Below, piece by piece: positions 1,221-5,166 of a stretch of 29,841 bases of DNA. Below the pieces are notes generated by a model, which was not told the DNA's origin, ran no database searches, and was given only the letters and a program-made list of their open reading frames with translations. Location: IMG/VR virus record IMGVR_UViG_3300020420_000045, positions 1-29,841 of that record. The stretch is one strand, 5' to 3'. Position 1 is the first letter of the stretch, and every line of letters starts with the position of its first letter. A program made the translations under genes and the position numbers. The stretch comes from a virus (Duplodnaviria > Caudoviricetes).

Positions 1221-2060
1221 ATGTACAAACCAGTAGTCATGACAAATGACGACTATCACAAACACAAGAATTACTCCAGCACAAATGTTAGAGCTTTTCT
1301 TGATAACGATGAAAAAGGATTGGCTAGTTTAGTTCCGAGTACTAAACCGCCATCCAAAGCAATGATTGAAGGTACTGCTGTTCATGCATATATAGGAGAA
1401 CCTCATTTATTTAAAAGAGATTTTGTTTGCAAACCTGTGGATCTATCTCTTAGAACAAAAGAAGGAAAACAATGGGCTGCTGATAACGCAGATAAGATTG
1501 TTCTTGATACTGAGTTCTACAACAACTTACCTCATATCGCTGAGTCTTTTTATAGGAGTCCAGCTAAAGATATATATTTAAAAGATGGTTTAGTTGAAAG
1601 AAGTTTTTTCTGGGAAGATGATTACGGAGTTTCTTGCAAGTGCCGACCTGATTGGATTAGTAAAGACTTTCGTAGAATCATCGATCTTAAAACAACAGCC
1701 GATGCACATCCAAGAAAATTTAAAAGATCAATCGTAGATTACCGTTACGATATCCAAGCTGCTTTTTATATGAGAGGTGTAGAAGTTTGTACTAAGGTTA
1801 CTCCAGAAGTTTTTTATTTTATAGCAATAGAAAAGGTAGCACCTTTCTGTGTTGCTGTTTATCAGATTACTGATGATTGGTTATTAATAGGCCAAAAAGA
1901 TGTTCATGAAGCTTTATACCGAATAGATCGTGTTATTCAGTCAGGAGAACCGCAAGGCTATACCCCAGAAATTATGGCACTATCTCCTCCAGAGTGGATA
2001 AATAGTCCATCAAAGAAAAAGGTTACACCTTTAAATTATCATGAAATCCCTTTGTTCTAA
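1221..2060 (+). CDS. RecE/exonuclease VIII-like PD-(D/E)XK nuclease (DUF3799-like)
   Basis: Motifs GTAVH, E-x-S-x-FW, CKCRPDW, IIDLKTT, YRYDIQAAFY, FIAIEK; lies next to a RecT-like gene. Confidence 0.88.
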   Translation: MYKPVVMTNDDYHKHKNYSSTNVRAFLDNDEKGLASLVPSTKPPSKAMIEGTAVHAYIGEPHLFKRDFVCKPVDLSLRTKEGKQWAADNADKIVLDTEFYNNLPHIAESFYRSPAKDIYLKDGLVERSFFWEDDYGVSCKCRPDWISKDFRRIIDLKTTADAHPRKFKRSIVDYRYDIQAAFYMRGVEVCTKVTPEVFYFIAIEKVAPFCVAVYQITDDWLLIGQKDVHEALYRIDRVIQSGEPQGYTPEIMALSPPEWINSPSKKKVTPLNYHEIPLF

Positions 2061-2215
2061 TGTCTTTTGAAATTAAACGCATACAGCAAAGACTGGACGA
2101 ATTAGAAAAAGATTCTAAGGGCATCGAGATTATGAGGCTTGTTTTACTTGAAGTAAACGAAACCTTAATTGACATCAAACAAAGATTATTACAATTGGAG
2201 ATCAATCAAAAATGA
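2060..2215 (+). CDS. Small coiled-coil hypothetical protein (51 aa)
   Basis: MSFEIKRIQQRLDELEKDSKG...LEINQK; coupled to both neighbours by TAATG and ATGA overlaps. Confidence 0.75.
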   Translation: MSFEIKRIQQRLDELEKDSKGIEIMRLVLLEVNETLIDIKQRLLQLEINQK

Positions 2216-2871
2216 CATCAGAAATCACACCAACAACAAATGACGAGTCTTCTATCTATTTACAGGATTCTGCATTTGAAATGGCACAAAGACAAGCTAG
2301 AAGTTTAGCTGCTTCTACTTTAGTTCCAACAGAATATAGAGGAGAACAAGGTTTAGGTAATTGCATTGTTGCATTAGACATTGCAAAACGTATGAACATA
2401 AGTCCTCTTACTGTTATGCAAAATCTAATCATTGTACATAACAGACCATCTTGGAGTAGTGCTTGGATCATTGCACAAATACAAGGTTGTGGACGCTATG
2501 AAAATTTTAATTATGAATTATCTGGCGAAGGAGAAAAGATGAAATGTTATTGCACTGCTATTAGAGTTAGTGATGGTAAAAACATTAAAGGATCTACTGT
2601 ATCTATTGCAATGGCAAAAGCAGAAGGCTGGACTAGAAATAGTAAATGGAGAACAATGCCAGAGCAAATGCTTAAATATCGAGCAGCAACATTCTTTGGC
2701 AGACAATACATACCTGATCTACTATTAGGTGTACAAACAAGTGAAGAAGTTGTGGACATCACACCTCTTGATGTAACTCCTGTAGAGATTAATCCAAGTC
2801 TCAAGAAAGCAAAAGCAAGTGCTGAAGGTGCTAAAAACATTACGGAGAAACAAGATGACTTCGACTTCTAA
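2212..2871 (+). CDS. RecT-like single-strand annealing recombinase
   Basis: Motifs LVPTEYRG..GNC..A..., VMQNL.IV..RPSW, AKAEGW...SKW.TMPEQML.YRA..FF.R...PD.LLG; downstream of a RecE-like nuclease. Confidence 0.82.
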   Translation: MTSEITPTTNDESSIYLQDSAFEMAQRQARSLAASTLVPTEYRGEQGLGNCIVALDIAKRMNISPLTVMQNLIIVHNRPSWSSAWIIAQIQGCGRYENFNYELSGEGEKMKCYCTAIRVSDGKNIKGSTVSIAMAKAEGWTRNSKWRTMPEQMLKYRAATFFGRQYIPDLLLGVQTSEEVVDITPLDVTPVEINPSLKKAKASAEGAKNITEKQDDFDF

Positions 2872-3058
2872 TAATCCTGTTTACCTTACATCTAATGAAC
2901 TTGCCGAAAGATGGCGAGTTTCTATTAGTTCCGTTATCAGATGGAGAGAACAGGGTAAACCCCCTGCTTTCTATAAAATCAACGGCAACATCCTTTATAA
3001 GCTGGCCGATATAGAGGATTTAGAGAAGGCCAATCGTAAATCTACTACCTCTAACTAA
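2855..3058 (+). CDS. Excisionase/MerR-like helix-turn-helix DNA-binding protein
   Basis: YLTSNELAERWRVSISSVIRWREQGKPP.F.KING.ILY...DIE is an HTH_17-like pattern; ATG 2855 preferred over the track start. Confidence 0.8.
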   Translation: MTSTSNNPVYLTSNELAERWRVSISSVIRWREQGKPPAFYKINGNILYKLADIEDLEKANRKSTTSN

Positions 3059-3435
3059 TGACTTTTAAGATCAAATTAGCAGTCTTTTCTAACACAGATG
3101 AAGACCATAAAAGAGTTTATGGTGACAACTATGACTCAAGTAAAAACTATCCTAAATACTCAGGACAAATGCAAATCCCTGAGTCTGAGTTACCTAAATT
3201 TATCGAATACTTACAAAAATGTAAGCCTGATCACAATGAATACTTAGGTGAACCAGCAATACCTGTTAAAGTTAATGGATGGTTATCTACATCTAATAAA
3301 GGTGTAAAGTATCAAGGTCTTACTTTCGAACCTGTTTTTAAAAAACAGAAAGAAATTGAAGAAGGAACTAATCAAGCAGATCCTAAAGACTTCAAACTTA
3401 CGGAGAAAAAGCAAGACGAGGAGTTTCCCTTTTAA
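3058..3435 (+). CDS. Putative single-stranded DNA-binding protein
   Basis: Beta-rich core (PKYSGQMQI, VKVNGWLSTS..GVKYQGL), acidic-aromatic tail DEEFPF, position in the recombination operon. Confidence 0.55.
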   Translation: MTFKIKLAVFSNTDEDHKRVYGDNYDSSKNYPKYSGQMQIPESELPKFIEYLQKCKPDHNEYLGEPAIPVKVNGWLSTSNKGVKYQGLTFEPVFKKQKEIEEGTNQADPKDFKLTEKKQDEEFPF

Positions 3436-3439
3436 TTAT

Positions 3440-3554
3440 GTGGCATTAGTTTTCTATGTAAGCCCACTTTTTTGCTATAAGATCCCTTTCGGTCAGTTGG
3501 CTTGAATTATCTTATTATCCGTTCACTTACAAGTTTACCTGTACTTAACAGGTA
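3440..3554 (+). ncRNA. Structured repeat unit 1 (candidate guide RNA)
   Basis: 5' hairpin GTGGCAT-TAGttttCTA-TGTAAGCCCAC (3440-3467); 12 phased NNT-NN pentamers (3471-3530) ending CTTACAAG; 3' hairpin TACCTGT-actta-ACAGGTA. Confidence 0.75.
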
Positions 3555-3582
3555 TCTATATTTATTTACTATTTCTAAAATT

Positions 3583-4254
3583 ATGGCACTTTATAAAGTC
3601 CGTGGAACACTTACAGGTGTTACTCCAATACAACTTCAAAATTTTAAGTATCAGCATCCATCAGAACCGCTATACAAAATTCGTACACCAATCTCACAAA
3701 AAAGAAAAAAAACAGAAGAGGATCATATAACTCTTTCTAAATTAGATTTTCTTATGTCTTGTCATTGGCAAATTGATAATACAGATGATTGTGATTGCAT
3801 TGTTGATAGTAACGGCAATGTATCTTTTGCAGGGTTTAAAAATCCATATATGCCAGCAGAAATGTTGCGTAAATCAATTAGAAATTCTGCAAAAGCACTT
3901 AACAACAGAAAAGGCTCTGCATTTGATAGAGGTGTAACCGTTACAAAAGATATGCTTCTTAACTTTAAAGGTGAAAAAGATTGTAATACTATGTGGAATG
4001 ACAAATTATATGTAAGACTACGAGGTGAAAGAAATGGTAATTTGATATGGATTACTAGAGTAAAAATTCCTGATTGGTCTGTTAATTTTTCATTAACTTG
4101 TGATACAAGTCAAGTTGAATTATCAGAACTTGAAACCATGTTAACAGCAAGTGGTATGTATTCTGGGGTCGGCAGTTATAGACCTGAGAACGGTGGTAAT
4201 GCAGGGAAGTTTACGGTGTCAAACTTTGCATATGAGGAAACTGTTTTAATATAA
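3583..4254 (+). CDS. Stand-alone RAMP/Cas7-like RNA-binding protein (223 aa)
   Basis: N-terminal strand VRGTLTGVTPIQL, RAMP-like PYMPAEMLRKSIRNSAK, C-terminal glycine-rich loop GVGSYRPENGGNAGKFTV. ATG 3583 chosen because the track start (3502) lies inside repeat unit 1. Confidence 0.65.
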   Translation: MALYKVRGTLTGVTPIQLQNFKYQHPSEPLYKIRTPISQKRKKTEEDHITLSKLDFLMSCHWQIDNTDDCDCIVDSNGNVSFAGFKNPYMPAEMLRKSIRNSAKALNNRKGSAFDRGVTVTKDMLLNFKGEKDCNTMWNDKLYVRLRGERNGNLIWITRVKIPDWSVNFSLTCDTSQVELSELETMLTASGMYSGVGSYRPENGGNAGKFTVSNFAYEETVLI

Positions 4255-4258
4255 AAAT

Positions 4259-4378
4259 CTAGGCTTCTTCGGTGTAAGTCCTAGTTTTCCGTTATTATGC
4301 CTCTCCTTGGCTTGTATTCCCTTAATTTAAAATTTATTTTTATCCCTTAAATTACAAGTCCGCCTGTACTTAACAGGC
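4259..4378 (+). ncRNA. Structured repeat unit 2 (candidate guide RNA)
   Basis: CTAGGCTTCttcgGTGTAAGTCCTAG hairpin; 14 phased pentamers (4286-4355); GCCTGT-actta-ACAGGC hairpin. Confidence 0.78.
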
Positions 4379-4390
4379 ACAGAATTTTTC

Positions 4391-4520
4391 CTAGGCATCT
4401 TCGGTGTAAGTCCTAGTTTTATCTCCCCTTACATTCACTTCAGTTGTTTTGGCTCGTCTTATTTTGACTTCGGATGCCTTTATTTTTTATTACTTACAAG
4501 CTCGCCTGTGCTTAACAGGT
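4391..4520 (+). ncRNA. Structured repeat unit 3 (candidate guide RNA)
   Basis: CTAGGCATCttcgGTGTAAGTCCTAG hairpin; 16 phased pentamers (4418-4497); GCCTGT-gctta-ACAGGT hairpin; ACAGAATTTTTC linker on both sides. Confidence 0.78.
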
Positions 4521-4532
4521 ACAGAATTTTTC

Positions 4533-4636
4533 CTAGGCATAGATTATCTTGTAAGTCCTAGATCTTAGTCTCTTTGTAATTTCCTAATTTGGCTTTAGTT
4601 GACTTTGCTTACAAGTTTGCCTGTACTTAACAGGCA
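4533..4636 (+). ncRNA. Structured repeat unit 4 (candidate guide RNA)
   Basis: CTAGGCAT-AGAttaTCT-TGTAAGTCCTAG hairpin; 10 phased pentamers (4563-4612); TGCCTGT-actta-ACAGGCA hairpin. Confidence 0.75.
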
Positions 4637-4659: not shown

Positions 4660-5166
4660 ATGCAAGAATTACCAATCCTGTCTATTGACTACCAAAAAAT
4701 ACGCAAAAATGACGTATTTACAGAAGAACAAGTTCTTCATCATTTTAAATATAATCTTTTAGGGGAAGAAGAATACAACAAACGTGTCGATAAATATCAT
4801 AGGAAAGAATATGTTTCTCATCCTGATGAATTTGCTTTTAGAGAAGTATCAAAAGCTATAGAAAATAATTGTAGAGAACTTGGTTATCCTGTTGTCGTAC
4901 AAACAAAGAGAAAACAAATTCATATTCTTGACGATAAGAATGCTGTTGAATATTTGTCTAACAGGGCTGATTTACATATGAAAAGCTTTGAGAAAAAAGT
5001 ACACAGACTTCACGTTGATATAGATGAAGATAAATTATCTGATTATGATAAAAAACAGTTTGAACATAAAAAAAATTACTATACCTTAGTGCAGGGACAT
5101 ATTTTACAAGGTCAAAAGTCCTTAAAAGAAATGAGAAAAAGGAAAAGATTAGAAGGTGACAATTAA
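4660..5166 (+). CDS. Hypothetical protein, candidate accessory of the RAMP/repeat system
   Basis: 168-aa charged, largely helical ORF starting 24 nt after unit 4; basic C-terminus. Confidence 0.75.
   Translation: MQELPILSIDYQKIRKNDVFTEEQVLHHFKYNLLGEEEYNKRVDKYHRKEYVSHPDEFAFREVSKAIENNCRELGYPVVVQTKRKQIHILDDKNAVEYLSNRADLHMKSFEKKVHRLHVDIDEDKLSDYDKKQFEHKKNYYTLVQGHILQGQKSLKEMRKRKRLEGDN

Follow-up and report, generated by a model that had tools for sequence, protein, structure and literature searches.

VIPR systems, as set out in the texts of 10.64898/2026.04.26.720920 and 10.64898/2026.04.26.720927, use one Vipr subunit for every five nucleotides of guide, and the two letters NN of each pentamer carry the information. 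For the Vipr protein of Escherichia phage SUSP1, the text of 10.64898/2026.04.26.720927 describes H17 and D177 as the residues that read the G at scaffold position 1 (G1), and K33 as essential for holding the skipped base. Non-canonical arrays of the forms NNNGG, YNNNG and NNNNG have been reported (10.64898/2026.04.26.720920), and the text of 10.64898/2026.10.21.760802 gives 21 clusters of non-canonical scaffolds, including GAC, CAC (without G), WGT and TGH; a changed scaffold is therefore not new in itself.

The DNA analysed here, called the window and taken at its full length of 29,841 nucleotides, is a virus record of 29.8 kb, whose genes include those of a tail and a RecET-type pair. It carries four repeat units, one upstream and three downstream of a vipr gene, each ending in a covarying pseudoknot tail. 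We regard it as very probable that these units are guide RNAs of a VIPR system with an N-U-U scaffold, flanking vipr and predicted to bind the DNA of rival phages, with silencing as the likely outcome. This reading is based on the five-nucleotide period, the homology and fold match of Vipr, stems that covary on the + strand, the loss of the G1-reading residues, and in silico matches in codon phase. The features are as follows.

1221..3435, + strand: upstream context outside the system (exonuclease VIII, RecT, an HTH/excisionase-like gene and an ORF of unknown kind)
3440..3467, + strand: unit 1 leader, predicted bulged hairpin with outer stem GTGG/CCAC and bulge TAAGC
3471..3530, + strand: unit 1 repeat tract, 12 NUY/NN pentamers, predicted guide; 20 of 22 NN letters fit G001:4006-4038 at a 1-nt skip
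3531..3553, + strand: unit 1 tail, hairpin with predicted AGY/RCU pseudoknot
3583..4254, + strand: vipr gene, 223 aa, RAMP (Cas7-like) fold with G-loop, between unit 1 and units 2-4
4259..4284, + strand: unit 2 leader hairpin, CTAGG/CCTAG with bulge TAAGT
4286..4355, + strand: unit 2 repeat tract, 14 pentamers; middle pairs common to a 12-member guide family of relatives
4356..4378, + strand: unit 2 tail, hairpin/pseudoknot
4391..4416, + strand: unit 3 leader hairpin
4418..4497, + strand: unit 3 repeat tract, 16 pentamers; weak, non-significant lead to a prohead-protease motif
4498..4520, + strand: unit 3 tail, compensatory AGC/GCT form of the pseudoknot
4533..4561, + strand: unit 4 leader hairpin
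4563..4612, + strand: unit 4 repeat tract, 10 pentamers
4613..4635, + strand: unit 4 tail, hairpin/pseudoknot
4660..5166, + strand: candidate accessory (vap) gene, 168 aa, after the array

Phased back from the common TTACAAG end, the units comprise 52 pentamers, with T at position 3 in 48 and C in the other four, and T at position 2 in 40. The hand counts of the preliminary description, which had proposed a strict NTT-NN code, were exact on recount. The 5-nt period is real, and comparison with sequences of the same composition confirmed it: among 10,000 mononucleotide and 10,000 dinucleotide shuffles, each scored at its best phase, the position-3 T count averaged 33.9 in both sets (maxima 43 and 42) and never reached the 48 of the window. 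The strictness of the triplet did not hold up, however, since position 1 is free (C 21, T 15, G 9, A 7) and position 2 only prefers T. Positions 4 and 5 are mixed in composition, as the earlier description of NN as variable had it, and the downstream cores do differ by whole pentamers, measuring 72, 82 and 52 nt from leader to tail in units 2 to 4. With G at position 1 in just 9 of 52 pentamers and at position 2 in one, the scaffold is not GGY. The repeat stretch recurs without change in one contig of run X1, from which it may have come, and in four identical pieces of run X2; it is therefore no assembly artefact. The units do not form a Class 1 CRISPR array of identical repeats and contiguous spacers, since their variable parts, 50-80 nt long, are themselves periodic at 5 nt.

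Related loci numbered 45 (9 viral and 36 metagenomic). In 25 of the loci, window included, 97 units were read. Three of them were left out, two being out of phase (L008:740 and L022:2651, each with a one-letter shift in or beside a T run) and one a parsing fusion (L012:1211), and counts were made on the 74 distinct cores that remained, with 1208 pentamers. Across the 1208 pentamers, position 3 is T in 96.4% and C in 3.4%, and position 2 is T in 71%, A in 18% and G in 2.6%, while the entropy of position 1 in the relatives is 1.92 bits. The motif is thus of the form N-(U>A)-Y/NN, constrained at positions 2 and 3 only. As in VIPR, where a unit holds about 9-16, the pentamers stand in tandem, 10-16 to a unit in the window and 10-28 in the relatives, whose loci hold up to seven differing units.

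Guides of the relatives fall into families, and the substitutions within them are unevenly distributed: position 1 accounts for 60 events, against 35 at N4 and 35 at N5 (p 0.013), and all eight events at position 3 are C/T exchanges. The lower number of events at N4 and N5 marks NN as the more constrained part of the pentamer, which supports the proposal, made when the window was first described, that NN carries the information. Compatibility of NN changes with synonymous change did not separate sense from antisense readings (5 versus 7 of 62). In L043:761, a guide of 28 pentamers combines the front part of the 12-member family with the unit-1 family, which suggests that guides may recombine in pentamer register.

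The scaffold has evidently changed within one clade. In GC-rich relatives it is CGY, with G at position 2 in 93% and C at position 1 in 85% (18 cores); in an intermediate subclade position 2 is G in 19% and T in 54% (8 cores). Position-2 G thus falls from 93% through 19% to 2.6% as the GC content of the loci drops from 50-61% to 32-37%. In a midpoint-rooted tree the CGY subclade is sister to the other two, and judged by the GGY norm, G at position 2 would be the ancestral state. The GC-rich CGY/NN subclade (L009, L028, L030, L032, L033, L039, L040, L042 and L047) shares the first leader but has a different internal leader hairpin, and its tail pseudoknot is TCG/CGA or GCG/CGC. In two of these loci (L042:1080 and L047:959) extra CGY units lie 3' of the accessory gene, outside the main array.

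Every unit in the window opens with a bulged leader hairpin, whose outer stem covaries among the relatives (CTAGG/CCTAG, GTGG/CCAC, CCTGG/CCAGG and CTTGG/CCAAG) in all three subclades. The leaders of L003 and L008 retain the outer stem and bulge around a long inserted inner hairpin, an indication that the inner stem tolerates insertion. Searches by term in the texts on VIPR, 10.64898/2026.10.15.759431 among them, returned no description of a 5' bulged leader. Promoter-like sites occur at chance level (5 versus 5.4 expected). One guess is that the leader hairpin has a role in processing.

The structured 3' tail that characterizes VIPR is present as a hairpin with pseudoknot covariation. The hairpin stems show compensatory changes, all listed stems are fully paired, and their G-T pairs are valid on the + strand. 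In 104 tails (38 distinct), the AGY immediately 5' of the hairpin pairs with the loop RCT, the variable pair being T-A in 92, C-G in 9 and T-G in 1, with a mismatch in 2, from which we predict that the tails form a pseudoknot like that of the SUSP1 tail. A pairing between leader bulge and tail loop was also considered and was rejected, as it is absent from the GC-rich subclade; the local pseudoknot, in contrast, shows covariation. No family in Rfam credibly matched the window units; leader and tail are therefore not explained by a known ribozyme.

The gene between units 1 and 2 encodes a RAMP homolog with the RRM core, thumb and G-loop expected of a Vipr. Its start codon (3583) was set from an alignment of homologs. 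The protein matches phrog_4652 (E 1e-24) and no Pfam family, and is 27% identical to the product of the SUSP1 gene (E 2e-9; pairwise E 6e-17). A structure model (pLDDT 84) matches Csm3 with E 2.4e-6 and superimposes on a Csm3/Cas7 structure with Z 10.4 and rmsd 4.2 over 161 aligned residues. The SUSP1 gene itself (NC_028808.2) was identified as vipr because nine of ten residues numbered in the structure paper are in place and GGY repeats flank the gene. Residue 175 of this SUSP1 vipr (L011:1180-1767) is V in NC_028808.2, versus T175 in the text of 10.64898/2026.04.26.720927. In a midpoint-rooted tree of 30 rows, SUSP1 stands outside a single branch (100/100) that unites 13 clade proteins. Two loci, L044 and L045, encode distant Vipr homologs (26-27% identity) followed downstream by arrays that look period-5 but have other scaffolds, by eye GT-rich in L044 and AG-rich in L045.

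Residues were compared in an alignment of 170 proteins, with 141 distant homologs and 27 clade proteins covering the positions of interest. All 27 clade proteins conserve R138, R179, K82, G87 and R39. The SUSP1 readers of G1 are lost: at H17 the clade has Q or S (Q19 in the window), where 108 of 141 distant homologs have H, and at D177 all 27 clade proteins have S (S198 in the window), where 114 of 141 have D. The window protein therefore lacks the G1-reading residues of a canonical GGY VIPR, and the loss of both G1 readers fits the missing G at scaffold position 1. SUSP1 K33 aligns to T35 in the window protein, a point that we count against a simple VIPR story. No change in the protein was found that accounts for the switch from G to U at position 2, R159 being invariant and a W-to-Y replacement occurring also in 54 of 141 distant homologs.

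The gene after the array (4660-5166) is likely to be an accessory protein of the system. It has tblastn homologs in 29 of the 45 related loci, covering all three subclades, and the locus thus holds the minimal set known from phage loci: vipr, an accessory gene and flanking non-coding units. Its product belongs to no Pfam or PHROG family, has no similarity to that of the SUSP1 gene after vipr (E 32), and was modelled with pLDDT 68. Elsewhere in the window, between 11977 and 21026, repeats both internal and C-terminal (families D4, D5, D11 and D13) are common to several long tail-fibre-like genes.

The gene at 7893-8699 matches 416 phage records, whose names are all Synechococcus, Prochlorococcus, cyanophage, marine or uncultured, and the window is accordingly assigned to a marine cyanophage. 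No members of the clade were found in the genome collection that would name a host; from the low GC content and the phage that is the probable target, we infer that it is Prochlorococcus.

Targets were sought by seed scans under a rule that skips one nucleotide after each pair of letters; of five viral scans and one genome scan, one gave a probable target. A 16-letter seed from the unit-1 family met 23 viral loci, nine of which are one small phage gene family. All nine agree in addition with two pairs that the seed does not cover: GC, and TC, which is the allele of four of the eight guide-family members. The gene is read antisense to the unit-1 guide. At the best site, G001:4006-4038, 20 of 22 letters agree with window unit 1, which mismatches at pair 7, and 21 of 22 with four relatives; all 11 skipped bases fall at codon position 3, the wobble position. 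With skips of 0, 2 and 3, no guide out of 75 reached 80% in this DNA, a set chosen through the unit-1 seed. A rough estimate, from about seven independent hit clusters and five seed scans, puts the probability of such a target by chance at 0.01-0.05 before habitat and codon phase are considered. From these sequence matches, G001:4006-4038 is the probable target of unit 1.

The site is situated in the early region of G001, a podovirus with a capsid 79% identical to its counterpart in Prochlorococcus phage P-SCSP2. The target gene is also present in G002, which shares tail-type genes with the window, and in G003; neither the window nor five partial records of VIPR phages yielded it. The gene (G001:3707-4063, L069) is phrog_37844, of unknown function, and occurs in podovirus and long-tailed phages; it looks like a mobile early gene. 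Unit 1 was also read in sense against the C-terminus of a cyanophage protein, and the score (z 4.3) was within the background range.

Among other guides, three unrelated ones from relatives (L017:3197, L020:2495 and L021:3470) match three sites in HK97-type capsid proteins of S-CBS1-like phages, all in sense. The matches, obtained by reading NN as codon positions 1 and 2, hold at the amino-acid level only, with 8-10 of 17-18 residues identical. They represent 3 of 150 tests on a subset of the 120 proteins, and when the whole set of 120 was used, 0, 0 and 1 of 1500 shuffles equalled them. With the phase set wrong as a control, none of 150 came to a z of at least 4; a z of 4-5 also arises as background, including in the VIPR phages' own proteins. 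In silico matches at a 1-nt skip that falls on the wobble base therefore comprise the unit-1 family and three guides of relatives, and none of units 2-4. The codon phase of these matches is further support, for some guides, for NN as the information.

Exact-seed or small scans gave no target for units 2, 3 and 4 or for the most widespread guide family. The pattern that unit 2 shares with the guide family had no match in the viral scan, the seed of the 12-member family had 11 viral matches of which none extends, and one exact pattern had none in the genome collection. Unit-3 seeds gave 3 and 5 matches, agreeing in at most 23 of 32 letters. Both unit-3 seeds meet a prohead-protease motif of capsid-protease fusions, but unit 3 did no better than shuffles against 120 proteins of this kind (28 of 200), and the match remains a weak lead. 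Handle searches gave 0 of 5 and 0 of 5. Local scans of the loci, the podoviruses, S-CBS1 and KBS-S-2A returned nothing beyond the unit-1 family; at 85%, none of 75 guides matched in 17 further podovirus loci, and in the VIPR phages themselves none of 75 had a self-match of at least 85% at skip 1. For a four-member guide family (L002:3961, L017:3482, L021:3337 and L022:2775) the candidate targets, both weak, are a gene of a podovirus near G001:8850 (20 of 26 letters) and a phage sigma-factor motif (z 4.0).

The preliminary description had also proposed that the triplet is a protein-bound scaffold with one subunit per 5 nt. The results support this proposal, which is the published VIPR mechanism: the gene beside the units encodes a Vipr homolog, and binding would follow by analogy. 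On the model of SUSP1, the units would be transcribed and processed to RNAs of roughly 100 nt, along which Vipr would stack, starting at the 3' pseudoknot and placing one subunit on each pentamer. The three scaffold bases would be flipped out and NN would pair with DNA, with every third target base skipped; the scaffold would be recognized mainly through a pocket for pyrimidine 3 and through the backbone, with a preference for U at position 2. The resulting R-loop triplex would block transcription without cleavage. A bolder reading, which we consider possible but rather doubtful, is that VIPR in this cyanophage lineage has given up almost all base-specific reading of the scaffold, takes its register from the 3' pseudoknot and uses the 5' hairpin to cut the array into guides, in an RNA-guided war among Prochlorococcus phages. 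If true, the lineage would be a distinct VIPR type with the least constrained guide scaffold known, and a step towards scaffold-free binding by Cas7.

The freedom at position 1 raises the question of whether NN is the whole of the code. N4, N5 and the following N1 might pair as three contiguous bases with only UU flipped out, as the 1.92 bits of entropy at position 1 and the loss of the G1 readers would allow. Position 1 equals the skipped target base in just 4 of 11 unit-1 steps, however; within families it shows almost double the changes of NN, and in the GC-rich subclade C occupies it in 85%. All of this makes a three-base code highly unlikely. We give equally little credence to a decaying system, in which the T-rich scaffold is AT-biased drift from a CGY ancestor and many guides are dead. 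Though position-2 G declines alongside the GC content of the loci and most guides have no target found, position 2 is 71% T but 18% A, unlike plain AT bias; vipr is intact in full-length relatives and the stems covary; and NN is under stronger constraint than the scaffold, in loci with as many as seven differing units.

It is likewise very improbable that host genes, satellites resident in the host, or RNA are the main targets of the guides and not the DNA of competing phages. The SUSP1 guides do target satellites in the host genome (10.64898/2026.04.26.720920), and the 12-member family lacks a viral match that extends, host genomes having been probed by one exact pattern only. The matches found are nonetheless phage genes, one antisense and three sense, and this mixture of orientations favours DNA targets in phages or satellites.

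The window system very probably belongs to VIPR in the broad sense and would work as VIPR does; its scaffold sets it apart from canonical type II. Like the SUSP1 type II system (10.64898/2026.04.26.720920), it has a homologous Vipr, one unit upstream and three downstream, 10-16 pentamers to a unit, a pyrimidine at position 3, a 3' pseudoknot tail, a second small gene and, in its predicted unit-1 target, a skip at the wobble base. It differs in its NUU scaffold (versus GGY), in the replacement of H17 and D177, in the length of Vipr (223 aa, of which about residues 60-87 hold an insert, versus 195 aa), in the 5' bulged hairpin that each unit carries, in its cyanophage setting, and in an accessory gene that lies after the array and bears no similarity to that of SUSP1. 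Searches for runs of GGY would miss NUU arrays.

With the non-canonical arrays the window shares a pentamer of fixed and variable letters beside a Vipr fold, and the CGY of the GC-rich subclade fits YNNNG. The texts on those arrays offer no target or residue correlate. NUU, cyanophages and Prochlorococcus are not named in the texts of 10.64898/2026.04.26.720920, 10.64898/2026.04.26.720927, 10.64898/2026.10.15.759431 and 10.64898/2026.10.21.760802, though their figures (S17; S10) and supplements may show them. What looks new is the NUU scaffold, its correlate in the protein, the 5' leader hairpin and the cyanophage setting. With this clade VIPR reaches marine cyanophages and gains candidate natural targets.

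The Cas7/Csm3 backbone of Class 1 CRISPR-Cas has the same RAMP fold with thumb and G-loop and the same periodic flipping of bases along the guide; the window differs in having no CRISPR array, a guide split into dinucleotides, and a 5-nt step in place of a 6-nt one. VIPR has been proposed as an ancestor of Class 1 CRISPR, in which Cas7 binds RNA with no reading of bases. A clade that passes from CGY to NUU and has already lost its G1 readers offers a direct way to test, between close relatives, how scaffold specificity is lost.
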